Shown here: one piece after another, positions 6,551 through 31,501 of the stretch
Numbering within the stretch: the stretch's first letter is position 1
How the letters are laid out: the number at the start of each line of letters is the position of its first letter
Source: a virus
Lineage: Duplodnaviria; Heunggongvirae; Uroviricota; Caudoviricetes
Length of the DNA: 34,750 nt
Direction: 5' to 3' (one strand)
Virus record (IMG/VR): IMGVR_UViG_2875703104_000001
Notes under the pieces: model-generated
The model's input: the letters and a program-made list of their open reading frames with translations, nothing else
Told to the model about the DNA's origin: nothing
The model's database searches: none
Position numbers and translations under genes: made by a program

Positions 6551-7741
6551 TTAATTGCTGTTAACCGAGGTGACCAGATTTGCCAGGTATTTATCAGTAA
6601 TACGCTGGCGCAGGGTCAGGTTTTCAAGAGGAGGCACCGGGGTATAGTCGTAGTCGATATACAGTTTTCCGGCCTTGAGGGTTTCCGCATCGTTGGATTC
6701 TTCACTGAACCAGCAGGTCGCATCCACGATATAGCCGTTTGTTTTCAGCTCACGGAATTTGGCATTGATGCCGTCAACGATGTCGCGAATCAGCGTTGCG
6801 GTGATGGGCTTGTCCACCGCCCACATGTGCGCCTCAGCCATCGTGTCGGCCAGCACCTGCGCGGTGCGGGTGTAGTTTTCAAAGAGGAACAGCGGGTCAT
6901 CAGAGCAGGTACGGTTACCCCAGAACCGGAAACCGTCACGGCGAATCAGCGTTGTGACGCCTGACTCGTTAAGCAGGTCAGCATCGGTGCCGGACTCCTG
7001 CAAATCCCAGAATACAGATGCGCTGATGCCGGTAACACCGTTCACCCCGACATTGGACAGCGTTTTATGCCAGCCCTGCTCCTGGTCGATTTTAGCGCGC
7101 AGACCCAGCGCACGGGCGGTGGCATACGCGGTGGCGGTGGTACTGGTGACCGTATCCCATGCGAGGAAATCCGGCCAGATGACCATCAGCTCACGCTGGC
7201 TGAAATTCTGGCGGTAGGCTTTCACCTCGGAAATGGTCTTACAGCCCCATGCGCTGATATATCCGAAAGCGCGCAGCTTCTGACAGACTGATGCCAGTGC
7301 AACAGCCACCTCTTTGGTATCCAGCCCCGGCACACCAAGAATACGCGGTTTAACACCGGTTACCGACTCTGCCGCCAGCAGGGCTTTCAGTCCGGTATAC
7401 TGACCATTTTCGTCGGTGGTGCCGATGATATTGGAAACGGTCTGCGCGAGCTTCGTTTCTTCGTCATCGCCGGTGCCGTCTTCCACGCGCACGACAACGG
7501 TGACCGGTTTTGACTGGTCAGCGATGGCCTGCAACGATGCCGCCAGCGTGCCTTTTTTACCGGCCTTTGCAATTGCACTCTGCACATTGGTAATCAGCAC
7601 CGGTTTATTGAGGGGGAAGGTTTCCGCATCCGCATCGCTGGCCGTGCAGACCATGCCGACAATGGCAGTGGATACGGTGGAAATGACGCGGGTGCCGTCG
7701 TTAATCTCCAGCACCTGCACGCCGTGATGATAGTCACTCAT
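6551..7741 (-). CDS. FI: Contractile tail sheath protein gpFI (396 aa)
   Basis: Length and position match P2 FI; first gene of the FI-FII-E-T-U-D operon. Confidence 0.9.
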   Translation of the reverse strand: MSDYHHGVQVLEINDGTRVISTVSTAIVGMVCTASDADAETFPLNKPVLITNVQSAIAKAGKKGTLAASLQAIADQSKPVTVVVRVEDGTGDDEETKLAQTVSNIIGTTDENGQYTGLKALLAAESVTGVKPRILGVPGLDTKEVAVALASVCQKLRAFGYISAWGCKTISEVKAYRQNFSQRELMVIWPDFLAWDTVTSTTATAYATARALGLRAKIDQEQGWHKTLSNVGVNGVTGISASVFWDLQESGTDADLLNESGVTTLIRRDGFRFWGNRTCSDDPLFLFENYTRTAQVLADTMAEAHMWAVDKPITATLIRDIVDGINAKFRELKTNGYIVDATCWFSEESNDAETLKAGKLYIDYDYTPVPPLENLTLRQRITDKYLANLVTSVNSN

Positions 7742-8222
7742 CCGTTTAACTCCGTGGTTAATGGGTGAGTGGTATTTTCAGTTGTACCCGAGATGTCAGA
7801 CTATTTGTCCCGGTTGGCTAATCGACAGCACAACCACCGGTAAAGAAAAGGCGGGCAATTCGCTCGCCTGTCCTGATTTGTACTCACTTATTTCCCGACT
7901 GACAATTTACATAGCCAAAACGCTATCAAATCTGACAGTCTGCTTTGAGCGAGAAGCAGGCCTTACACTGTAATCAGCATAGAATAGGATGCAGAATCGC
8001 TAAACAAATAGATGTCTGTCAGAGTAGTGGCTTTTAGTGGAAATCTATAGTTGCTATAGCTCAGATAATTAAGTGCCGTCTCTGTCCGCAACTCTAGTCA
8101 GAGTTTATTGCACAGGGGAAATAAATAAGTGCATGTGAATCATTGTCACGAAACAGTAAATATTCGTCATGGGTCATCATATCACTATTTATATGTGTCA
8201 GAGTTGATACCCACCACTGAAA

Positions 8223-9269
8223 TCACTTTCCAAACTTATTAAATTGTTCAGCAATGAAATCAATATACTCATTACCTTGGCCGTTATGCCTGAATTTTTG
8301 CTGCCCTTCGAAATCTAAATTAGGTGAAAAATGAATTATTTGGTTATCTTCATACAGTTTTAAAGGAGAATAAAATGACAATGATTTATCATTCAATAAT
8401 TGACGCACTCCTGTTATAGCACTACCAATCAAAATATCACATAATTGAACTGCCGGGCTTAGTTTTGAATCAACTTGGTGAACATGCTCAAGCTTTAATG
8501 GGAATTTAATACTGGCGATTTCAGACATCTTAAACTCGGCTGGCGTCTGACATTTGATAAGCATCGAAAGATATTCATTGTATTGTAAAAGATTTTTAGA
8601 ACGATCATGCTCAATGCTATACGGTCCCTCTGACATTAATTCAGTGCGTGATATTAGTGCTTGAAGAATAACAAATGCTGCATCAGTAGAAATTTTTGGA
8701 TTAGTTATTGCCGTAATACAATCTGGATGCTCTAAAGCTAGTGGCCCCAGCACTTCCGGTAATAGACGCCAATTCACGGCCCTAACGTTCGCAATAAGGT
8801 TATTTACTGCTGTGTGCGTTTTCTCATGCATCGCATTTTGAAAAGATATTAGGATATTATCAAAATCTCTACCAAAGTAGCTTTGGCAGACATAGTAAGC
8901 CATTGATGCCATAGAAACGTTTCCACCATTTTCGTATAGATTTATCCCATGGTCATAGTAAAAAGGCTCTACCGCATACTCAATAAACATTTGAATTAGA
9001 ATCAAACGTTTATCGGCAACACAAGTAACACATGGAAAATTGGCAAGTAGTTCCTGTTGCAAAGTAAAAATTGGTTTTTGATAACTATCTCGCTTTTTAA
9101 GAGAGCTAAATTTCAATTCAGGGGCTTTGTGTTTAGGAAAATGTTGTCTGATAAGATGAAGAGCATCGTCATGACTAATCTTTACAGCGCTGGCCCCTTG
9201 CCAAGGTTGTGACTTTTGAAGAAGATCTCGCCCAGTGTAACCAGACTCATCAATTGAAAATATACTCAT
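8223..9269 (-). CDS. Cargo protein, DUF3800-like (348 aa), function unknown; candidate defence or moron gene
   Basis: N-terminus MSIFSIDESGYTG resembles the DUF3800 signature (hydrophobic-x-IDESG) and a C-terminal VQLCDILIGSAI resembles the DUF3800 QxADxxA-type motif. Gene is markedly AT-rich and sits at the P2 Z/fun position between FI and G. Confidence 0.6.
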   Translation of the reverse strand: MSIFSIDESGYTGRDLLQKSQPWQGASAVKISHDDALHLIRQHFPKHKAPELKFSSLKKRDSYQKPIFTLQQELLANFPCVTCVADKRLILIQMFIEYAVEPFYYDHGINLYENGGNVSMASMAYYVCQSYFGRDFDNILISFQNAMHEKTHTAVNNLIANVRAVNWRLLPEVLGPLALEHPDCITAITNPKISTDAAFVILQALISRTELMSEGPYSIEHDRSKNLLQYNEYLSMLIKCQTPAEFKMSEIASIKFPLKLEHVHQVDSKLSPAVQLCDILIGSAITGVRQLLNDKSLSFYSPLKLYEDNQIIHFSPNLDFEGQQKFRHNGQGNEYIDFIAEQFNKFGK

Positions 9270-9367
9270 TTATTCTGTGTCCATAGCTGTTGTTTCACCC
9301 AAAATACCTTTTTGGATAGTATTGCGCTATAGCCTTTAACCCTATTAATTGAGATCCATCGATGCAA

Positions 9368-9397
9368 GCAACGTCCGCTCATGGCACAGAGCGGACG
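9368..9397 (+). repeat. 30-bp hairpin-forming element, copy A (GCAACGTCCGCTCATGGCACAGAGCGGACG)
   Basis: Internal perfect 9-bp inverted repeat CGTCCGCTC/GAGCGGACG; about 87% identical to copy B at 11114..11143 in the same orientation. Confidence 0.7.
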
Positions 9398-9414
9398 ATA
9401 TCACTGAGCTGAAG

Positions 9415-9438
9415 GTCCGCTGAGAGCGAGGAGCGGAC
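9415..9438 (+). repeat. Second, shorter hairpin with the same GTCCGCT/AGCGGAC arms
   Basis: GTCCGCT-gagagcgagg-AGCGGAC, read directly, 18 bp downstream of copy A. Confidence 0.6.
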
Positions 9439-9548
9439 GTAGGGAATTGGTCCTTTCCCCCAACGATAACGTGTGTTAATCAGCCGAGAGTGGGTTATGA
9501 AACGCGGTGAATAGTTATGTTCCCAGTATCGCCATATTCCAGCCACTT

Positions 9549-10934
9549 TCAACGCATGCTTTTTGCGGTCTTATCTTGCTCCCAATGTGTGACACCTTCG
9601 ACCCCACGCGTCGAGTCAGATGTAAGCATCAATGGCTGTCTAAGGAAGAGCCCCATCAAATCCGGGACACGGGCAAAGTCTTGAACAGTCTCAGCCCACT
9701 CATAGTTGTCCTCTAATGGGTAATAATTAACGGCATGCAGGAAAGCACCCAACACGGTTGTTTTAGAGGCATCGTAGGCCGAGATATGCTCCATGTTTTT
9801 ATCCCTACGTAGTTCTTCAATATCTATGCCTTCGCAAGTCTCATACCAAATATGCACCACGCCAGCACGATCAGGGGGAATCTGCATGACTCCATCATTG
9901 AGCAAGCTCTTGAAATGCTTGGATCTGAGGCCAAGAGAAATCTCATGATCGCAGCACCACTGAGCTCCAACGCACTTTGCAACATCCTCTACAAAAATGT
10001 TGAGAATATCGTTATTGGTGCCAGGACGAATAACTCTCTGAGCGATAGTCGAGATACTTCGTTTCTCATTGCTATCTAGATCCCCAAATACCAGCAATTC
10101 ATGCTGTGGGCTATTGGCTCTGACTGAAAATTTTCTGTAGTGACGTCTGAGACCTAATTTGTCGATGGCTCGTATTCCCACACTGATTGAACCTTCATTA
10201 GCTTTTCCCGTCCCCCCTTTAATGGCTAGATTCACCGCTTTAATAACGTCTGCCGGAGTCACACTGGCGACCTGCTCATGGAAAATTATATCGACAATGT
10301 TCCATGGTGCGACTTTGAGCATATGTTGGCTCAATTGATGCCAGATGTTGGCCCAGGCTTGCTCTTCTGTCTTTGAGTACTTGGTTTGCTTATCCGACCT
10401 TTTGCACTCGACGTAGAACTCCAGATCACCTAACTTGACGAGCATATCCGGTGATTTTTTGGTCTTTCCATCGGGCCAAACAATGCTGCTTTCTGGGATG
10501 AAGGCAACCTCATAGCCGTTCTTTAGGTAGAACGATGCCGTCAGCAGCTCAAAAATTTGAGTTTCTGGTTTATTGTTATTTGCTAGCATTTTGTCCAGAA
10601 CATCATCGACGTATGGGACTTTGCGAAGCTGGTCTGCAACAGCTCCGATGGCCATAGCATAGGGGTAGATACGTCTGCTGCTGTAAGTAGCATCACTATA
10701 TGGAAAATCATGAGACAGATACGACGCCAGAATGTACCAGTCGATGTCATCTTCTGCTGGTATGAAGAGCTGGGGCTCTATCGGCAGATTGATGTTAAAC
10801 TTAGCCTCCTTCTCTCTTATGCGCTTGAAATATGCAGCTTTGCGAGCAGCCCAGGCCTCAGTTCCAAGCCTATCCACAAGCAACTGATAAAAAGCTTTTG
10901 TTCTTAAACGCTCAACACTACTGACACTATCCAT
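9549..10934 (-). CDS. Cargo protein of unknown function (461 aa) with a possible PD-(D/E)xK nuclease-like motif
   Basis: AT-rich ORF with no recognisable P2 counterpart. The segment SPDMLVKLGDLEFYVECK has PD...E-x-K spacing compatible with a restriction-endonuclease-like core; this is weak, motif-only evidence. Confidence 0.55.
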   Translation of the reverse strand: MDSVSSVERLRTKAFYQLLVDRLGTEAWAARKAAYFKRIREKEAKFNINLPIEPQLFIPAEDDIDWYILASYLSHDFPYSDATYSSRRIYPYAMAIGAVADQLRKVPYVDDVLDKMLANNNKPETQIFELLTASFYLKNGYEVAFIPESSIVWPDGKTKKSPDMLVKLGDLEFYVECKRSDKQTKYSKTEEQAWANIWHQLSQHMLKVAPWNIVDIIFHEQVASVTPADVIKAVNLAIKGGTGKANEGSISVGIRAIDKLGLRRHYRKFSVRANSPQHELLVFGDLDSNEKRSISTIAQRVIRPGTNNDILNIFVEDVAKCVGAQWCCDHEISLGLRSKHFKSLLNDGVMQIPPDRAGVVHIWYETCEGIDIEELRRDKNMEHISAYDASKTTVLGAFLHAVNYYPLEDNYEWAETVQDFARVPDLMGLFLRQPLMLTSDSTRGVEGVTHWEQDKTAKSMR

Positions 10935-11113
10935 TGCGGTCTCTCTTGGTTGTTGTATAGAGTCTTTAGCGATATATGTGATTTCAACTTATTGGAGGTA
11001 TTATCCTTCAGAAATCAAAGTTTGCTACCACAAAGAAATAGAAACTCTTTATTGCATCCTGTGTAAGTATCTATCCAAGCGGACCATTAGTTTTTTTAGA
11101 TATCTGACGTCCC

Positions 11114-11143
11114 GCAACGTCCGCTTCTGGCACATAGCGGACT
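11114..11143 (+). repeat. 30-bp hairpin-forming element, copy B (GCAACGTCCGCTTCTGGCACATAGCGGACT)
   Basis: 26/30 identical to copy A; the two copies bracket the 461-aa gene. Confidence 0.7.
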
Positions 11144-11206
11144 GTCAGATTAGGCTTTACTCTGTGCCATAGATATGTAAGCTCACACCAGAGATCATAC
11201 AACTTA

Positions 11207-11731
11207 TTACGGCATTTCCGGCCATTCGGGATTTGCAGGATCCACACGACTGACCAGAACGCTGTAGCGTTCCCATGCTTCCAGTCGGCCGCGTTCCTCA
11301 TCTGTTGCCATATTCAGCCTGACAGCGCGTTCCAGTGGCTGAATGATAGTTTCAGCTTCGGAAAGCAAAGCTGCCTTCTGTAATTCCGCCAGTTGCTCCT
11401 GTTCATCTGCCGTATAAATCCGCTTAATCACAGCACCATCCTTAAACATCCATTTACCTGAGTCATCAGCACGTCGGTTGGAGGTAATATCAGGAACCTC
11501 GACAACGCTGAAACCTTCAGGGTTAAGCGTTGAAGCATCTCTGGTGATGGCGACAATAATATTATTCTCGTCGTAAACAATTTTTATTGTGTCTGGCTGA
11601 AAATTACTTACTTCCTCATACCAGTTTTTTCCGTCTTCGGACCATAACCAGATAACATCAAAATTCTTTGTTAGCTGATATTGTTCTTTTGTTTTTGGAT
11701 TACCTGACTTAATGTTTTCTAAATGCTGCAT
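11207..11731 (-). CDS. G: Tail fibre assembly protein gpG (174 aa)
   Basis: C-terminal region ...[39 protein letters not shown] is the conserved Tfa/gpG-type tail fibre assembly motif; located immediately downstream of H. Confidence 0.85.
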
Positions 11732-23416: not shown

Positions 23417-25189
23417 ATGACCATCACCACAGACACCACTCTTTTACACGACCCGCGTCGTCAGGCGGCGCTGCTGTACTGGCAGGGGTTTTCCGTGCCG
23501 CAGATTGCCGCCATGTTGCAGATGAAACGCCCGACGGTGCAGAGCTGGAAACAGCGCGACGGCTGGGACAGCGTTGCCCCCATCAGCCGTGTCGAAATGA
23601 GTCTGGAAGCGCGGCTGACCCAGCTCATCATCAAACCGCAGAAAACCGGCGGTGACTTCAAGGAAATTGACCTGCTGGGACGCCAGATTGAACGACTGGC
23701 ACGGGTAAACCGTTACAGTCAGACCGGCAACGAGGCAGACCTTAATCCGAACGTCGCTAACCGCAACAAAGGCGGGCGTCGCAAACCGAAAAAGAATTTT
23801 TTCAGTGACGAGGCCATCGAAAAGCTGGAGCAGATTTTCTTTGAGCAGTCTTTCGACTATCAGTTGCACTGGTATCGCGCCGGGCTTGAGCACCGCATCC
23901 GCGATATCCTGAAATCCCGCCAGATTGGCGCGACGTTTTATTTTTCCCGCGAGGCGCTGCTGCGCGCCCTGAAAACCGGTCATAACCAGATTTTTCTGTC
24001 GGCCAGTAAAACGCAGGCGTATGTGTTCCGTGAATACATCATCGCCTTTGCCCGGCTGGTTGACGTTGACCTGACCGGTGACCCGATTGTCCTGGGCAAT
24101 AACGGCGCAAAACTGATTTTTCTCGGCACCAACTCCAACACCGCACAGAGCCATAACGGCGACCTGTACGTCGATGAGATTTTCTGGATCCCGAATTTTC
24201 AGGTACTGCGTAAGGTGGCATCAGGTATGGCCTCACAGAGTCACCTGCGCTCGACCTATTTCTCCACCCCGTCCACGCTGGCGCACGACGCCTACCCGTT
24301 CTGGTCGGGTGAACTGTTCAACCGGGGACGCGCCAGCGCCGCCGAACGCGTGGAAATCGACGTCAGTCATAACGCCCTTGCCGGTGGGCTTCTCTGTGCG
24401 GACGGCCAGTGGCGGCAGATTGTCACCATTGAGGACGCCCTGAAAGGTGGCTGCACGCTGTTCGACATTGAGCAGCTCAAACGTGAAAACAGCGCCGACG
24501 ATTTTAAAAACCTGTTCATGTGTGAATTTGTTGACGACAAGGCGTCGGTGTTCCCGTTCGAGGAGCTGCAACGCTGCATGGTCGACACGCTGGAAGAATG
24601 GGAAGACTATGCGCCGTTTGCCGCCAATCCGTTCGGCTCCCGCCCGGTATGGATTGGTTACGACCCGTCACACCGTGGCGACAGCGCCGGATGCGTGGTG
24701 CTGGCACCGCCGGTGGTGGCCGGTGGCAAATTCAGAATACTTGAGCGTCACCAGTGGAAAGGCATGGACTTTGCCACCCAGGCGGAATCCATCCGCAAAC
24801 TCACCGAAAAATATAACGTTGAATACATCGGGATTGATGCCACCGGCCTCGGTGTCGGCGTGTTCCAGCTCGTGCGCTCGTTCTATCCCGCCGCGCGCGA
24901 TATCCGCTACACGCCGGAAATGAAAACCGCAATGGTGCTCAAGGCAAAAGACGTTATCCGCCGTGGCTGTCTGGAATATGACGTCAGCGCCACCGACATC
25001 ACCAGCTCGTTTATGGCTATCCGCAAGACCATGACCAGCAGCGGACGCAGCGCCACCTATGAGGCCAGCCGCAGCGAGGAAGCCAGCCACGCCGACCTCG
25101 CCTGGGCGACCATGCACGCCCTGTTAAATGAGCCACTCACCGCCGGTATCAGCACCCCGCTGACATCCACCATTCTGGAGTTTTACTGA
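23417..25189 (+). CDS. P: Terminase ATPase (large) subunit gpP (590 aa)
   Basis: MTITTDTTLLHDPRRQAALLYWQGFSVPQIAAMLQMKRPTVQSW matches P2 gpP as recalled; the ORF-track start at 23387 adds 10 codons. Confidence 0.9.
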   Translation: MTITTDTTLLHDPRRQAALLYWQGFSVPQIAAMLQMKRPTVQSWKQRDGWDSVAPISRVEMSLEARLTQLIIKPQKTGGDFKEIDLLGRQIERLARVNRYSQTGNEADLNPNVANRNKGGRRKPKKNFFSDEAIEKLEQIFFEQSFDYQLHWYRAGLEHRIRDILKSRQIGATFYFSREALLRALKTGHNQIFLSASKTQAYVFREYIIAFARLVDVDLTGDPIVLGNNGAKLIFLGTNSNTAQSHNGDLYVDEIFWIPNFQVLRKVASGMASQSHLRSTYFSTPSTLAHDAYPFWSGELFNRGRASAAERVEIDVSHNALAGGLLCADGQWRQIVTIEDALKGGCTLFDIEQLKRENSADDFKNLFMCEFVDDKASVFPFEELQRCMVDTLEEWEDYAPFAANPFGSRPVWIGYDPSHRGDSAGCVVLAPPVVAGGKFRILERHQWKGMDFATQAESIRKLTEKYNVEYIGIDATGLGVGVFQLVRSFYPAARDIRYTPEMKTAMVLKAKDVIRRGCLEYDVSATDITSSFMAIRKTMTSSGRSATYEASRSEEASHADLAWATMHALLNEPLTAGISTPLTSTILEFY

Positions 25190-26223
25190 TGAGCAAGAAA
25201 AAAGGGAAAACACCGCGACCAGCGGCAAAAACAATGACCGCCAGCGCCCCGAAAATGGAGGCATTCACCTTTGGTGAGCCGGTGCCGGTACTCGACCGCC
25301 GTGACATTCTGGATTACGTCGAGTGCATCAGTAACGGCAGATGGTATGAGCCACCGGTCAGCTTTACCGGTCTGGCAAAAAGCCTGCGTGCTGCCGTACA
25401 TCACAGCTCGCCAATTTACGTCAAACGCAATATTCTGGCCTCGACATTTATCCCGCACCCGTGGCTTTCCCAGCAGGATTTCAGCCGTTTTGTGCTGGAT
25501 TTTCTGGTGTTCGGTAATGCGTTTCTGGAAAAGCGTTACAGCACCACCGGTAAGGTCATCAGACTGGAAACCTCACCGGCCAAATATACCCGTCGTGGCG
25601 TGGAGGAGGATGTTTACTGGTGGGTGCCGTCCTTCAACGAGCCGACAGCCTTCGCGCCCGGCTCCGTGTTTCACCTGCTGGAGCCGGATATTAATCAGGA
25701 GCTGTACGGCCTGCCGGAATATCTCAGCGCCCTTAACTCTGCCTGGCTGAATGAATCGGCCACGCTGTTCCGCCGCAAGTATTACGAAAACGGCGCACAT
25801 GCCGGATACATCATGTACGTCACCGATGCCGTGCAGGATCGCAACGATATCGAAATGCTTCGCGAAAACATGGTTAAGTCGAAAGGCCGCAATAACTTTA
25901 AAAATCTGTTTCTCTATGCCCCTCAGGGGAAAGCCGACGGCATTAAAATTATCCCCCTCAGTGAAGTGGCAACGAAGGACGATTTTTTTAATATCAAAAA
26001 ATCCAGCGCCGCTGACCTGCTGGACGCGCACCGCATCCCCTTTCAGTTGATGGGCGGCAAGCCGGAGAACGTCGGGTCGCTGGGTGATATTGAGAAAGTG
26101 GCAAAGGTCTTTGTCCGCAATGAGCTTATCCCGTTACAGGACAGGATTCGGGAAATAAACGGCTGGCTCGGTCAGGAGGTCATCCGCTTTAAAAACTACT
26201 CACTGGACACTGACAACGGCTGA
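25189..26223 (+). CDS. Q: Portal protein gpQ (344 aa)
   Basis: Length and synteny match P2 gpQ; start overlaps the P stop. Confidence 0.9.
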   Translation: MSKKKGKTPRPAAKTMTASAPKMEAFTFGEPVPVLDRRDILDYVECISNGRWYEPPVSFTGLAKSLRAAVHHSSPIYVKRNILASTFIPHPWLSQQDFSRFVLDFLVFGNAFLEKRYSTTGKVIRLETSPAKYTRRGVEEDVYWWVPSFNEPTAFAPGSVFHLLEPDINQELYGLPEYLSALNSAWLNESATLFRRKYYENGAHAGYIMYVTDAVQDRNDIEMLRENMVKSKGRNNFKNLFLYAPQGKADGIKIIPLSEVATKDDFFNIKKSSAADLLDAHRIPFQLMGGKPENVGSLGDIEKVAKVFVRNELIPLQDRIREINGWLGQEVIRFKNYSLDTDNG

Positions 26224-26576: not shown

Positions 26577-28220
26577 TTAAGATCTACATTCAACTAAAAG
26601 GTACACTAATGGACGTTCTGGCGTCCCATTCTTCTTTGCAACAAAAGCAGATATTTTGTGTTTTGCTATTTTTTGCTTGAGTTTTTTACATAACACTTTG
26701 TTTATATAACCAAGTTTCCCGCTCTCATGAACAACAGCTATAGCATGTGGATCAACCGGGTTATCCTCTTCAGGAACAAGCTTGACCAAATCACCGACCA
26801 TTACTTTCGACAAATCAAGCCCTTCCTGATAACGAGTTCCTGCCACTTCAAAAAGAAGCTCACCTTCACTATTAAGAATTTCTGGATCTGGCACCAAACA
26901 AAAACCATCGCCAGGTGATTTTGCTCCTGTATATCCTAACAGCGCAAAATCAGAGCCTTCAAATGGATGGGGGAGCAAATGTTGAGCCAGATACTCAGCA
27001 AAGTCTTTTCTTTTCCGTGGTGGTAAACGCCGAACAAACGGGTCAAGCACGTTGTTCGTATGTTCTTCACTTTTCAGACTAAATGCGGGATGTCCTGCAA
27101 ACCCTTTCTCTTGGGCTTTAGCATAATCTTCTGACTGAAAATGGTATGTGAAGACGTAGTTATCCCCTTGCTGACGATCAATCTGACCAACAACATAACG
27201 AGTACCGCCTGTGGGTGGCTGCCATGTAAGAAGCAACCGAGTAGGCTCCATTATTCTGTTTATAGTACGCATATTTAGAATCAGTGATAACCTTAGGTAT
27301 CTACGCCTCAATAAACGAATCGTCCAATCCGCTCGTTCCCTAGTGAACGGCACATCGGAGCTAATTTCGCAAAGTGAATCTATCTTGTCGACCAGTTCCT
27401 GAAAATCAAATTCAAGTCTCCGGGCCAAGTACGCTTTTGACTGCTCATCAAGAGCCAAATCCTGTATAGAAGAAATATGACCTAATCGTTCATGCGTGTC
27501 TGCCCGATTCTTCCGCAAATGATGACAACCACGCTGTATGTATTCATCTACATTTTGATGGTTCCATCCTCTGATCCTCTCTACATACCTTTCATGCCCC
27601 AAACTAGTACCATTATCGAAATATGGTGCGAGATATCCCTTCACTTTAGGTGGCGTTATGCCTGGTGCAGATTCAGGTACAAAAACAAAACCCCAATTCT
27701 CTTGGTGTCTATCACTATTACCGATGAGCGCATCAAAAAGCAGCATATCGTAAAGCCATTGGATCCAGTCTGGAGAGATCAGGCCGCGGATACTAAAAGC
27801 CCTACAAATTAAGCGTAGATCAACAAGGTTATGGTGTCTTCCGGAAGAGTCATCAAAATCCGATATCAACACATGAAAAAAATCAGACGCATGAACAAAT
27901 AACTGGCTACTTTGATCGTAAAACCACTCAAGCAAAGCTCCATATTCGTATTCACCGTTCTCCATCATTCTTCGCGCTGGCAATGCTTTAGGAACAGGAA
28001 CGCCCATAACATCTCCAACTATATAAGCAACGGTTTCCATCCAGTACTGATCGGGATAAGCATCTCTTGAGAGTTTAAAAAGATAAGGCCATTCCGGTTT
28101 TATCCCCTCAGGAGCATCATTCGGTGACCAAAGCATTTTTTTATCCCTCGCTCCTCGAGGAAAAATGCCATGCTCATCATCTTTACGCCAACTAGTTACA
28201 TCTATTAAATTGATATCCAT
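26577..28220 (-). CDS. HipA-like Ser/Thr kinase domain protein with C-terminal HIRAN-like domain (547 aa); candidate defence or toxin effector
   Basis: LFDALIGNSDRHQENWGFVF fits the HipA-family catalytic loop (GNxDxHxxN) and LAPYFDNGTSLG the downstream HipA motif. C-terminus LFEVAGTRYQEG...LVPEEDNPVDPHAIAVVHESGKLGYINK fits the HIRAN signature. Gene is AT-rich and sits between cos and A. Confidence 0.65.
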   Translation of the reverse strand: MDINLIDVTSWRKDDEHGIFPRGARDKKMLWSPNDAPEGIKPEWPYLFKLSRDAYPDQYWMETVAYIVGDVMGVPVPKALPARRMMENGEYEYGALLEWFYDQSSQLFVHASDFFHVLISDFDDSSGRHHNLVDLRLICRAFSIRGLISPDWIQWLYDMLLFDALIGNSDRHQENWGFVFVPESAPGITPPKVKGYLAPYFDNGTSLGHERYVERIRGWNHQNVDEYIQRGCHHLRKNRADTHERLGHISSIQDLALDEQSKAYLARRLEFDFQELVDKIDSLCEISSDVPFTRERADWTIRLLRRRYLRLSLILNMRTINRIMEPTRLLLTWQPPTGGTRYVVGQIDRQQGDNYVFTYHFQSEDYAKAQEKGFAGHPAFSLKSEEHTNNVLDPFVRRLPPRKRKDFAEYLAQHLLPHPFEGSDFALLGYTGAKSPGDGFCLVPDPEILNSEGELLFEVAGTRYQEGLDLSKVMVGDLVKLVPEEDNPVDPHAIAVVHESGKLGYINKVLCKKLKQKIAKHKISAFVAKKNGTPERPLVYLLVECRS

Positions 28221-28229
28221 ATCTTACGG

Positions 28230-28781
28230 TTACCCAGCTAATGCACGGAAAGCAGCACTAACATAAGCTACCTGAAACTTTGCATCTCGAAGCGCATGAT
28301 GCGCATCAGTAACATTAATGGAAAAATTTGCCCTTACATCAATATTCTTAAGGCTTTTAGCTAGTTCAACGATGGTACGCACGTCTCGATCATTTCGAAA
28401 ACGCCATGGGATATTTTGCGCATGTTTACGGTAAACCGCTGCCAATATAGCGTTATCAAAGCTTGCCCCATTCCCCCAAACTTGTACGTCATCGTTACTA
28501 CGACTTCGTACAAATAGAGAAAATTCTTGTAAGGCTTCATGTAAGTCAACAGCAGACGGGTCATTAAAAACCGCCCTTGCAGAATCGCTTTGTATCATCC
28601 ACCACTGTAAAGTTTTTGGGTCTACAAAACTATTTTCCAATGCAGATGATAGGGTTATAACTCTATAAAACTCATCCCCACACTTGCCAGTCAGAGGCTC
28701 AAAGAACACAGCGCCGATTGAAATCAAAGGAGCATCCATTGACACACCTAATGTTTCTATATCGAGCATTAAATTATTCAT
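28230..28781 (-). CDS. DEDDh-family (DnaQ/RNase T-like) 3'-5' exonuclease (183 aa)
   Basis: Exo I motif LDIETLG (D-x-E), central FDNAIL aspartate and C-terminal AHHALRDA (H-x4-D). GGAGG ribosome-binding site 4 nt before the ATG; 9-nt gap to the kinase gene suggests one operon. Confidence 0.7.
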   Translation of the reverse strand: MNNLMLDIETLGVSMDAPLISIGAVFFEPLTGKCGDEFYRVITLSSALENSFVDPKTLQWWMIQSDSARAVFNDPSAVDLHEALQEFSLFVRSRSNDDVQVWGNGASFDNAILAAVYRKHAQNIPWRFRNDRDVRTIVELAKSLKNIDVRANFSINVTDAHHALRDAKFQVAYVSAAFRALAG

Positions 28782-28959: not shown

Positions 28960-31236
28960 TCAAGGGAAATCATTAAAACCCGGCCAATCACAACAAGGCG
29001 GATAAACAAATTTTTTCATGTCATAAATAACTTCTGCCCCACGAGCCAGCGCCTCAAGCTCCCATCTCTGAGGCCTGATACCGTTCTGAGCAAGGTCAAC
29101 GCGGATACGGGTGATTTGCAATCGTTCAGACCGGGTCAGTCTGGCCGATGGTGCAATTTCATGCGGTTTTAACGGGCTTCCGTTTCTTTGCTGACGGTTT
29201 GGTCTTCTCAGGCCGTATTTTAATGCACCTCTGAGCGCCCTCACGACCTCCGGGTCATTCCATTCGATAACACCGTCATCAACCAGATTAAGCACTGCTG
29301 CGGCGTGCTCAGAAGGTGTGGGAGCCAGTAACGAAGTATCACCACCGGTGAGCTTTCCACAGTTATTGACAGGACTCCGAGGCGCGGCGATGCCGCTTTT
29401 TAAAGTCAAAGGCTCAACGACCGGAACTTTCGGCACAATGCGCCAGTCCGTCGTTCTGGTGATATGAATATGACGCGCGCCGAGATGCGGCGCGTAAATG
29501 CCGACCACTCTCTCGACTTCTTCCTCGTACTCGTTAACGTCATCCGACGGACTACGGGCGACCCTGACAGTCTGACAATCGCGCGGGACATTTGCCCCGC
29601 CCTGCGCGCTGATATACAGCGCAAAATCGCCACTGTCTGCGGCAGCGCGTGCAGCCTCCACGCGTTCGTCAAACTCATCAGCAATACTGACGCCGCGAGG
29701 CAATTTACGTAGTTCACGGTAAGCCCCCATTGTCGGCAGTCCAACCGTTTTAAATTGCGGGATGCGCCACGTTGACGCCCATGCGGTAACAGCCGCGGCA
29801 GTATCTTTAAGCGGCTTACCGGTATCGTTATCGAGCTGACCATCCAGTGCATAGCCGTCGATATTTTTTGAAATGTATTTCGCGATATATCCCGCAGCAC
29901 CGCCCCGGTTAAGATGCTTTGCCTGAAAACGGTTTCGCGCGGCTCCTCTTTCGTCACCATCCTCTTTGAGCGCATAGCGACGCATGATTTCGATAATCTG
30001 GTTACGCTGGCGTGGATTACAAAAAAGCATCATATGCCAGTGCGGCGTTCCGTCGTGGTGTGGCTCGACGACACGCAAACCGTAGACCTGTAAATCATTA
30101 TCCTTGAATGCCGTACGCATCAGGCTCCAGATACGGCAGAGATAACGCTGCGCATCCTTTGGATTAAATGCCTCATCATTCCAGCCGTGATTAAGCTGGA
30201 CGGTTTTACTTTCGCCTTTTCCGACCTGACGTGTCGGATGATACTTTGACGGCGCGGTCATCGTGATAAACATCCCCACATCACCCTCTGCGGCGGCGTA
30301 ACGCTCAATTCCGGCGATGGTGTTCATCAGCTCCATCCGGCGAATTTCAGGATTAGAAATACTGCCCATCACCTTACTGATAAGGTCGATGCGCTCGCCG
30401 GTTTCCCTGTTTTCAAGGTCACACGATTTAAGAAATTCCAGATTTGCCTGGCGGCGCGCACGCACATCACGAATGGCATGTTTACTGGCATAAGGAGAAC
30501 GGTCTTTATTGACCTCCCCGACAGCAATCAGTAACGCCTCATGCCAGCGCATACGCTGGCCTTTAAGCTGATGAGTCCACCACTCATCGTTAAACAGACG
30601 GGCAATGGCAGAATATGCCTGCCTCGTGGTCATCTGTCCTTTACGGTATTTTTTCCAGTAGAGCGGGGAAATATTGAAAGCACGTGCAGCGCCAGCAACA
30701 TGACCATACAGGTGAGCCTGCGCCTCATCCGTAAACAGCGATTCTTTTTCGCCATGCGCATCCACCCAGGCATCGCAGAGTTCCTCATACATCATGAAAA
30801 GCTGCGATGAGATTCGGGCGGCAAACTTTTTCAGCTCCTTGTCATTCATCCCCGGCAGGCGCGCATACTGGTCGCGCTCTGCCAGAAACAGCAACGACGC
30901 GTCGGTGTTCATTTCATGGCGCTGATTCACGCGCTCAATGCGCGGCCATAAACGACGCTGAAAAGTGGATGTGAGGAAATAAAACCCGTGCACCGGGCTT
31001 TTATTGCGCCGGATGTAGTCATAGCGTGAAGTAAACAGCGAACGCAAAAAGTAAGGCAGGCGGTTAATCGTGGATAAAACACCTTGCACCTGACGCATCT
31101 CGTCACGTGTAAGGGGTCTTTCGCGCCCGACAGCCTCGCGTGGCGCGTTCCATGCATAAGCACCGGTAAACGCCTTACCGGTGCCTGCGGCAAATGCTGA
31201 CGGAGGGACAAAACGCCCGGAGGCTTTAACGGCCAT
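28960..31236 (-). CDS. A: Replication initiation protein gpA (rolling-circle HUH endonuclease), about 758 aa
   Basis: Contains the HUH motif (GTPHWHMMLF) and the P2 gpA-like N-terminus MAVKASGRFVPP. The ORF-track start at 31278 is 14 codons further upstream; start choice is uncertain. Confidence 0.88.
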   Translation of the reverse strand: MAVKASGRFVPPSAFAAGTGKAFTGAYAWNAPREAVGRERPLTRDEMRQVQGVLSTINRLPYFLRSLFTSRYDYIRRNKSPVHGFYFLTSTFQRRLWPRIERVNQRHEMNTDASLLFLAERDQYARLPGMNDKELKKFAARISSQLFMMYEELCDAWVDAHGEKESLFTDEAQAHLYGHVAGAARAFNISPLYWKKYRKGQMTTRQAYSAIARLFNDEWWTHQLKGQRMRWHEALLIAVGEVNKDRSPYASKHAIRDVRARRQANLEFLKSCDLENRETGERIDLISKVMGSISNPEIRRMELMNTIAGIERYAAAEGDVGMFITMTAPSKYHPTRQVGKGESKTVQLNHGWNDEAFNPKDAQRYLCRIWSLMRTAFKDNDLQVYGLRVVEPHHDGTPHWHMMLFCNPRQRNQIIEIMRRYALKEDGDERGAARNRFQAKHLNRGGAAGYIAKYISKNIDGYALDGQLDNDTGKPLKDTAAAVTAWASTWRIPQFKTVGLPTMGAYRELRKLPRGVSIADEFDERVEAARAAADSGDFALYISAQGGANVPRDCQTVRVARSPSDDVNEYEEEVERVVGIYAPHLGARHIHITRTTDWRIVPKVPVVEPLTLKSGIAAPRSPVNNCGKLTGGDTSLLAPTPSEHAAAVLNLVDDGVIEWNDPEVVRALRGALKYGLRRPNRQQRNGSPLKPHEIAPSARLTRSERLQITRIRVDLAQNGIRPQRWELEALARGAEVIYDMKKFVYPPCCDWPGFNDFP

Positions 31237-31501
31237 ATGAGCCAAAAGCCTCTGAACAACGCTTGCTGAGTTGCTCAACCTGCGCGTTTAAATCAGCAAA
31301 AGACTTTGCGCTTCCGGTCAGAATATCGTGATGCATCAGGCCGGAAACGAGCTGGCTTAATTTCGGGTAATAACCAACCACCGACAGCCATTCCTGACCG
31401 GCGTTTTTACCGCTTTCCGCTCTCTTTTTCTCGTGGAGAACAAACTGAAAGCTGTCACTGGTAACGACATAACGTTCGCCAATTTCAATACGAATACTCA
31501 T
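31226..31501 (-). CDS. Small early-operon protein, P2 orf83-like by position (91 aa)
   Basis: Position immediately upstream of A in the cox-B-A operon; no motif recognised. Confidence 0.6.
   Translation of the reverse strand: MSIRIEIGERYVVTSDSFQFVLHEKKRAESGKNAGQEWLSVVGYYPKLSQLVSGLMHHDILTGSAKSFADLNAQVEQLSKRCSEAFGSYGR

Follow-up and report, generated by a model that had tools for sequence, protein, structure and literature searches.

The question raised by this locus is what a gene of the DUF3800 family does in the accessory slot of a prophage. The stretch analysed, called the window below, is the whole 34,750-nucleotide IMG/VR virus record IMGVR_UViG_2875703104_000001, which is a P2-like prophage, and the gene under study lies on its minus strand (8223..9269) and reads from ATG to stop codon as a protein of 348 amino acids. 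It had been described, in what we refer to as the original prediction, as an orphan gene resembling DUF3800 in a phage hotspot and as a candidate single-gene effector. We put at about one half the probability that the gene is a lysogen-expressed, single-gene cassette encoding a metal-dependent nuclease which would defend the host against superinfection. The family and the domain of the protein are already known from Pfam, PHROGs and RefSeq, and both an RNase H fold and links to defence have been published for DUF3800 as predictions; what the present analysis adds is the long stand-alone clade to which the protein belongs, the mobility of the gene on its own, the absence of RNA, reverse transcriptase (RT) or CRISPR partners, and the tandem cassettes bounded by hairpins in which the gene is found.

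Family, predicted fold and conserved residues

The membership of the protein in DUF3800 is far beyond chance, as judged from Pfam, from PHROG and from the number of its homologues. The Pfam profile PF12686 (DUF3800), for which the gathering score is 21 bits, matches residues 6-283 with 26.3 bits (E = 1.4e-5), covering positions 4-145 of the 149 of the profile, and this is the comparison by which the original prediction had proposed to check the assignment. Indeed, both of the motifs on which it had relied are present, the N-terminus of the protein being MSIFSIDESGYTG and residues 274-285 being VQLCDILIGSAI. The protein is also matched over its full length by PHROG 12991 (E = 4.6e-161), whose function is unknown, and an indexed search returned 932 homologues at E ≤ 1e-3, nearly all of them with 345-355 amino acids and many with a precomputed PF12686 match. 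An exhaustive profile search gathered 1,449 clusters at 50% identity for the long-form DUF3800 protein, and RefSeq already names the protein under study 'DUF3800 domain-containing protein', so that the label of orphan was mistaken; NCBIfam holds no model for it.

Every full-length member among the best 150 of the profile search has the same stand-alone architecture, with about 345-410 amino acids and no additional domains, and on the basis of these sequences we consider that the long form (about 350 amino acids) is a coherent clade of its own within DUF3800. With PF12686 and PHROG 12991 the protein shares the N-terminal DE and the C-terminal QxxD, motifs described as the signature of DUF3800 (PMC7736814), as well as a predicted RNase H-like fold; compared with PF12686, it is enlarged by some 125 residues of helical insert and, at the C-terminus, by a further region of roughly 60 residues.

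An AlphaFold2 model obtained from 41 homologues, with a mean predicted local distance difference test score (pLDDT) of 91.2 and a predicted template modelling score (pTM) of 0.89, contains five strands, corresponding to residues 2-9, 23-29, 80-86, 217-222 and 260-266. The helical parts of the model are an insert at residues 87-212 which is entirely helical, a helix between strands 4 and 5, a long helix at residues 272-294 and a further C-terminal region at about residues 295-348. According to this model the core of the protein is a type-2 RNase H-like fold split by the helical insert of about 125 residues (~87-212), and it is because this insert divides the core that the approximately 149 positions of PF12686 are spread across residues 6-283. 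The closest structures are those of RNase HII and RNase HIII, followed by the terminase nuclease domain, Argonaute PIWI, RuvC and retroviral integrase, and Foldseek gave a weak agreement with an RNase H-type fold. A fold of this kind is what the literature expects for DUF3800, and the prediction agrees in this respect with the family assignment.

Residue conservation was analysed in an alignment of 41 sequences reaching down to 48% identity, in which D7-E8-S9-G10 and Q275...D278 are invariant, as are the other polar residues H221, D222, D267 and S268. When the alignment and the model are combined, D7/E8 are found at the end of strand 1 and H221/D222 at the end of strand 4, with D267/S268 after strand 5 and Q275/D278 on the helix that follows. 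Relatives at about 30% identity keep IDE(S/C)G, VEP (E101), the equivalent of D196, IHD and GLQxAD; D267 is not kept in them. On the model, D7, E8, H221/D222 and Q275/D278 are candidate catalytic residues, and the location of D7, E8, D222 and D278 at C-terminal strand ends or on the next helix fits the metal-binding places of RNase H-fold enzymes. The gene is also under purifying selection: among seven copies from different contexts, the pairwise ratio of nonsynonymous to synonymous substitutions (dN/dS) is 0.07-0.15 and the frame of 348 codons is intact in 7/7, from which it follows that the gene is functional and constrained wherever it has been inserted.

The similarity to RNase HII requires some care, as the original prediction had named clear homology to a characterised housekeeping enzyme as a finding that would speak against it. 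A likeness to RNase HII and HIII does exist at the level of the fold, whereas a sequence relationship is not detectable. No chain of the PDB was matched by phmmer or by a profile search with the 348-residue protein, hhalign against the RNase HII of E. coli (RnhB) yielded a probability of 0.3%, and the Pfam family RNase_HII has no match in the protein. On these negative results, a kinship with RNase HII at the sequence level is rejected, and the visual likeness between IDESGYTG and VDEVGRGP is left unsupported by the same comparisons; likewise, there is no sequence relationship to type 2 RNase H as a group (RNase HII, HIII and H2A; 1io2, 4py5, 3puf and 2d0a). In comparison with RNase HII, the DUF3800 protein carries the helical insert, its QxxD helix motif replaces the C-terminal aspartate arrangement of RNase HII, a difference which Altae-Tran et al. 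call, for DUF3800, a 'catalytic rearrangement', and its gene is cargo of mobile elements whereas RNase HII is a housekeeping enzyme. The protein is thus best described as a predicted RNase H-fold nuclease, yet one that stands outside the RNase HII family.

Mobility of the gene and its genomic surroundings

The gene lies in a slot flanked by two conserved P2-type genes. To the left is the tail-fibre assembly gene G (11207-11731, minus strand; Caudo_TAP in Pfam, E = 1.1e-33, and P2 annotation), and to the right the tail sheath gene FI (6551-7741, minus strand; Phage_sheath_1 in Pfam, E = 9.8e-34, and P2 annotation). Phage P2 carries fun(Z) in this position, and the placement of the gene in a hotspot was therefore correct. 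The position between G and FI is named 'moron position 2' in the literature (PMC3573123), the tail-gene hotspot holds 16% of P2 defence systems (PMC13586616), and fun(Z) is a lysogenic-conversion gene which blocks T5 (P2 annotation); the other P2 hotspot, between gpQ and gpA, was the object of a detailed study by Rousset et al. 2022. The 3.5 kb at 7742-11206 are 100% identical to the matching part of Escherichia phage 899 and of Yersinia phage GMG73, and are matched by phage P2 at the two ends only, over about 9% of the length. Only two open reading frames (ORFs) of at least 100 amino acids are found in the slot, the DUF3800 gene, with a G+C content of about 35%, and a neighbouring gene for a protein of 461 amino acids (9549..10934, minus strand), with about 46%, the tail genes having about 55%. 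Among 5,426 E. coli genomes, 36 have the DUF3800 gene, each of them in one copy, and these 36 are among the approximately 1,763 genomes that carry the flanks of the slot.

The gene moves as an autonomous one-gene cassette among prophage slots and elements. Indeed, copies with 84-96% identity stand alone in other prophage slots: a Serratia P2-like prophage has one of 87% identity in its gpA-portal hotspot, a Proteus lambdoid prophage one of 84% after its tail-fibre gene and a distant myovirus one of 88% after its tail genes, and further copies in the 84-96% range occur in viral contigs and in a Phytobacter genome. Together with the gene, about 125 bp of upstream DNA (9270..9396, minus strand) are retained in every compared copy that is at least 84% identical, and the identity of this piece to its counterparts in five other settings is 80-96%. 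It starts with an L-type hairpin (described below) and presumably contains the promoter of the gene itself and the 5' untranslated region (UTR). An invariant palindrome of 17 nt, CCAAAA-AGGTA-TTTTGG (9299-9315), is located 29 nt before the ATG and is kept in seven copies on different elements, perhaps as an operator or as a small hairpin of the 5' UTR. No covarying or conserved RNA structure was found in the conserved upstream piece, and the intergenic region of 279 nt folds slightly better than shuffled sequence (z = -2.2). Consensus promoters and terminators for the cassette were considered and rejected, as such sites are no more frequent than in shuffled sequence. Judged by these sequence features, the gene is a 'moron', being non-core, atypical in G+C and accompanied by flanking DNA that moves with it, with a presumed promoter. 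It is this movement of the gene alone with its upstream DNA, along with the fact that its neighbour in the window is never its neighbour elsewhere and that the slot is a recognised accessory and defence hotspot of P2, which upholds its description as a candidate single-gene effector.

The downstream side of the gene behaves differently among copies. The non-coding stretch from the stop codon to the hairpin that follows (7958..8222, minus strand; about 290 nt with the hairpin) is 72-96% identical in the loci L003, L082/83 and L092, and is absent in L084/85, L093 and L096; it contains short, unconvincing ORFs only, and has no Rfam match. We have rejected the possibility that these approximately 290 nt are an essential non-coding RNA or small ORF, as they are missing in four close copies and contain no convincing ORF. 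Since only some copies retain the stretch, it is probably an ancestral flank and not an essential element.

A structured RNA partner was also considered, given that eleven enigmatic RNA motifs adjoin DUF3800 genes (Weinberg 2017). Rfam 15 includes the families of these motifs (DUF3800-I to -XI), and none of them is found at gathering score in the whole window, at E ≤ 10 in positions 7700-11300, or at 18 loci that encode proteins of this clade; with these negative results and no covariation, an RNA partner of this kind is rejected.

We have analysed the surroundings of the family at 80 genomic loci encoding relatives of the DUF3800 protein, with 139 neighbour representatives scanned with PADLOC and Pfam for counts of families only, so that the association with defence is a qualitative one. 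The 306 flanking proteins at these loci fall into 224 clusters, and no neighbour cluster is present at more than 16/80 loci; AbiH is found in 16 of the 80 and the complete Gabija pair GajA + GajB in 11, counts that are not independent because many of the loci are related integrative and conjugative elements (ICEs). Other recurrent neighbours are a RES toxin with its partner, OLD-like and AriA-like ATPases, PLD nucleases and transposases, and conjugation genes of ICEs (TraD, DUF4400, DUF2895) also recur near the relatives. These neighbourhoods have the signature of variable, defence-rich cargo regions on mobile elements. At 12 of the 80 loci (L034, L037 and ten others), the gene directly downstream, in the same orientation, encodes an SMC/AAA_23-like ATPase of about 908 amino acids and either overlaps the DUF3800 gene or follows it by no more than about 110 bp; DUF3800 and this ATPase may represent a two-gene variant in Pseudomonas-type ICEs. 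The PADLOC matches of the ATPase are to mad3 and LmuB.

The family is also found on plasmids. A paralogue of 61% identity has a NACHT protein and ParD as neighbours on a Rep3 plasmid of small size (L086-L088), and is also present on 233 larger plasmids, 206 of which are conjugative, at about one copy per plasmid. The larger plasmids include the IncHI1 plasmid R27, whose copy (L097, NC_002305.1 137384-138430) is separated by 51 bp from an ISNCY transposase on its upstream side and has PLD, thermonuclease and orphan Dcm methylase genes nearby; the R27-type paralogue may be the passenger of an insertion sequence (IS). Taken qualitatively, residence in defence-rich places is thus observed from the G-FI slot of P2 and the copy in the gpA-portal hotspot to the relatives located beside Gabija, AbiH, RES, OLD-like ATPases and NACHT.

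Hairpin-bounded cassettes in the G-FI slot

The slot is made up of two cassettes in tandem, of which the DUF3800 cassette is the second. Four short GC-rich hairpins of two types, L and R, delimit this arrangement. The L-type hairpins are found at the G-proximal edge of the slot, where the 461-residue cassette has its 5' end (11114-11142), and at the boundary of the DUF3800 cassette (9368-9396; GTCCGCT-N10-AGCGGAC), the latter being 90% identical to the former over 29 nt. The R-type hairpins, which have the loop CTCGCTC, close the 461-residue cassette (9410-9438) and, on the FI side, both the slot and the DUF3800 cassette at its 3' end (7932-7957), with 77% identity between the two copies. The hairpins at 9410-9438 and 9368-9396 constitute an internal R-L junction, so that the layout on the gene strand is G - L - 461-residue gene - R - L - DUF3800 gene - R - pF - FI. 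By chance, 0.10 matches to the hairpin pattern would be expected in the window, where six are found.

The same L hairpin is found in phage P2 directly after G, and the same R hairpin, homologous to the copy at 7932-7957, beside the pF promoter region. The inverted repeats of the slot are reportedly dealt with by Nilsson et al. in 2004 (Mol Biol Evol 21:1). In the GenBank records of Nilsson et al. repeat regions are annotated at both edges of the insert, with the designation 'left inverted repeat' in one record and 'right inverted repeat' in another. We have surveyed the hairpins in 26 P2-like viral loci having both G and FI, and the L hairpin is found 55-70 nt past G in 25 of them. One L and one R are present in 16 loci, an L with a diverged R in eight, neither in one, and two of each type in one (L164). 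The latter also has an internal R-L junction; its cassettes differ in size from those of the window and the 461-residue protein is absent, which indicates a different cargo. These results suggest a cassette-level exchange resembling that of an integron at the G-FI slot, and the hairpin-bounded, stackable cassettes provide a separate lead on how cargo is swapped in phage hotspots.

Outside this slot, the hairpins border the 461-residue gene in non-P2 islands too (L090, L091), and the R hairpin is kept with the Phytobacter and Serratia copies of the DUF3800 gene. The hairpins accompany both genes outside P2 slots, and loci with hairpins include L081 (P2), L082, L084, L085, L090, L091 and L164.

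Proposed function and rival explanations

In the mechanism that we propose, the DUF3800 gene would be expressed in the lysogen from its own upstream region, and the protein would act as a metal-dependent nuclease with an active site formed by D7/E8, H221/D222 and Q275/D278. The helical insert and the C-terminal region (about residues 295-348) might take part in substrate recognition or in auto-inhibition. The enzyme might cut a form of nucleic acid that is typical of an infecting phage, such as an RNA-DNA hybrid, an R-loop, or branched or replicating DNA; alternatively, it might be unleashed on host nucleic acids and result in abortive infection. The outcome would be that the lysogen, and hence the prophage, is protected against superinfecting phages.

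A role of this type can be compared with those of DUF3800 proteins in known systems, as the domain recurs in bacterial immunity, in type VII retrons and in Cas12a2, Cas12a3 and type VI-F loci; 'DUF3800 domain-containing protein' is also one of the ranked protein names listed in a DefensePredictor supplementary table. In type VII retrons DUF3800 is the effector (Mestre et al. 2020, PMC7736814), and this effector (Retron_VII_2), itself in a phage-defence setting, has the same Pfam domain and a predicted RNase H2-like fold; however, retron-linked proteins do not have the Q of QxxD, whereas Q275 is invariant here. The slot contains no RT, as assessed with Pfam on both ORFs of at least 100 amino acids, and no retron or RT-associated RNA of Rfam, and the protein is therefore not a retron effector. 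In the Cas12a2, Cas12a3 and type VI-F CRISPR loci DUF3800 is an accessory, predicted RNase H-fold nuclease. The TPR-DUF3800 proteins of these loci share with the present protein the domain and the predicted nuclease fold, but the latter has no TPR, stands alone and has DUF3800 as its sole Pfam domain. No cas genes were found among the window proteins scanned, and the absence of both TPR domain and cas genes indicates that the protein is not CRISPR-associated; a repeat search of positions 7700-11300 found no CRISPR-like array. With fun(Z), which together with old and tin belongs to the classical lysogenic-conversion exclusion genes of P2, the DUF3800 gene has in common the slot, the L and R hairpins and the phage type. 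The two proteins are nevertheless unrelated, and the DUF3800 cassette has the orientation of the tail genes, opposite to that in which fun(Z) is transcribed.

Several points weigh against a defensive nuclease. The presumed promoter piece contains no consensus sigma-70 site, as inferred from a promoter scan of the conserved upstream DNA, and in PADLOC-DB v2 the sole match of the protein is a marginal one, to PDC-M04A (E = 7e-4), covering residues 259-291 and the QxxD motif alone. In the model, the link to RNase H is one of fold only, as the protein has no sequence-level relationship to PDB chains or to E. coli RNase HII, and the proposed carboxylate cluster was placed by strand and helix position alone. 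Many neighbours of the relatives are not defence genes, and as related ICEs contribute a large part of the neighbourhood signal, that part is not independent. Also, the G-FI slot of CFT073 carries neaT, a virulence-linked acyltransferase gene (PMC3573123), so that the location in this slot is not proof of defence. Finally, the literature searched holds no experiment showing phage defence by any stand-alone DUF3800 protein. In the same literature no biochemistry is reported for DUF3800 and no function has been experimentally shown, in agreement with the statement of the original prediction that the family has no established function. In a DefensePredictor supplementary table, DUF3800 is mapped only to the DefenseFinder model Retron_VII_2; none of the 42 validated systems of the DefensePredictor paper involves DUF3800.

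The cargo of the slot is indeed not restricted to defence, and this, as exemplified by neaT, speaks for a gene of lysogenic conversion or of host nucleic-acid metabolism (repair or RNA processing) unrelated to phage conflict, or for neutral cargo. That the top structural matches are the housekeeping RNases HII and HIII and that the neighbours of the relatives are often ordinary or uncharacterised genes points in the same direction. However, strong purifying selection combined with constant relocation among mobile cargo sites is typical of conflict genes, the protein has no sequence homology to RNase HII, E. coli already possesses rnhA and rnhB, and the patchy distribution of the gene (36/5,426 E. 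coli genomes) speaks against a general metabolic role, so that we regard this explanation as unlikely. A nuclease might instead serve the element itself, as a counter-defence or phage-fitness factor that destroys the RNA hybrids of retron multicopy single-stranded DNA (msDNA), CRISPR R-loops or guide RNAs, or that aids the replication of the element. This would suit the carriers, which are phages, ICEs and conjugative plasmids (206/233 of the matching plasmids), as well as the mixture of Dcm methylase, thermonuclease and PLD genes on R27, which could be anti-restriction cargo, and RNA-DNA hybrids are a plausible substrate for an RNase H-like fold. Yet the position of the gene in the prophages examined, between or after late structural operons and with upstream DNA of its own, is the layout of a lysogen-expressed moron and not of an early anti-defence gene; the gene is often an immediate neighbour of Gabija and AbiH in islands of chromosomes and ICEs, and the known associations of the domain are those of an effector or accessory of defence systems. 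Furthermore, its rarity among P2-like prophages, where it is found in 36 of the approximately 1,763 genomes with the slot flanks, indicates that the phage does not need it, and we consider a counter-defence function rather improbable.

The two remaining explanations are linked to the cassette structure of the slot. An RNase H fold is also found in DDE transposases, RuvC and integrases, and the protein might in principle be a selfish mobility enzyme which moves its own hairpin-bounded cassette. Nevertheless, the 461-residue gene, fun(Z) and, by inference, other G-FI cargoes (inserts of 1.1-5.6 kb, mostly unfit for the DUF3800 cassette) share the hairpins while encoding unrelated proteins, and the hairpins are therefore independent of DUF3800. 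Moreover, each of the 36 E. coli genomes has exactly one copy and each plasmid about one, the 3' boundary differs between contexts, the nearest structures are RNase HII and HIII and not transposases, and most ICE-island relatives do not have the exact hairpin pattern (no match at 89/98 loci), all of which makes an enzyme of mobility very unlikely. A two-gene system comprising the adjacent 461-residue protein, probably a PD-(D/E)xK nuclease, either as two nucleases or as sensor and effector, is suggested by the side-by-side, same-strand arrangement of the two genes in each of the 36 E. coli genomes with the DUF3800 gene and in the two deposited phages; these genomes are 99-100% identical in this region, however, and thus represent one lineage. 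A relative of the 461-residue protein is present at none of the 80 loci of DUF3800 relatives, and close copies of the DUF3800 gene occur alone in other prophages. In turn, the 461-residue gene is found in 42 E. coli genomes, in at least six of them outside this prophage type. Of the two outside loci examined, one is an ICE region flanked by IS elements and the other a tRNA-Phe island, where the gene neighbours a restriction endonuclease; these islands are unrelated, and neither contains a DUF3800 gene. The difference in G+C content (~35% against ~46%) and the 279-bp gap containing the R-L junction, which is the signature of cassettes joined in tandem, complete this picture, in which the 461-residue gene is independent cargo and not a partner. 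The two-gene system is accordingly rejected, and we leave it barely any probability.

Defence by a single nuclease gene, the reading that we prefer, could extend well beyond this prophage. It is conceivable, although we hold it as a tentative proposal that may well prove wrong, that long-form stand-alone DUF3800 proteins are a widespread, unrecognised type of single-gene anti-phage nuclease acting without RT, CRISPR or RNA partner and perhaps sensing RNA-DNA hybrids or ribonucleotide-containing replication intermediates, and that in P2-like phages the hairpin cassettes carrying them stack in an integron-like manner. The locus offers a simple object for testing, as it comprises a single 1-kb gene and its native upstream piece of about 125 bp, is available in the deposited phages 899 and GMG73, and has D7, E8, D222 and D278 as targets for mutation. 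If resistance were observed, a new single-gene nuclease defence would be established, as well as a handle on the role of DUF3800 in retron and CRISPR settings; if not, the result would usefully caution against reading a defence function from hotspot location alone. The gene is a cheap experimental target, yet it is one among many hotspot candidates.

The window contains a second, cos-proximal hotspot at 26577-28781 (minus strand), located between the portal gene Q (25189-26223) and gpA (28960-31278) and holding two genes. One of them encodes a protein of 547 amino acids with a match to PDC-M03A in its N-terminal half and to PDC-M03B in its C-terminal half, as if the two had been fused, and the other encodes a DEDDh exonuclease-like protein of 183 amino acids.

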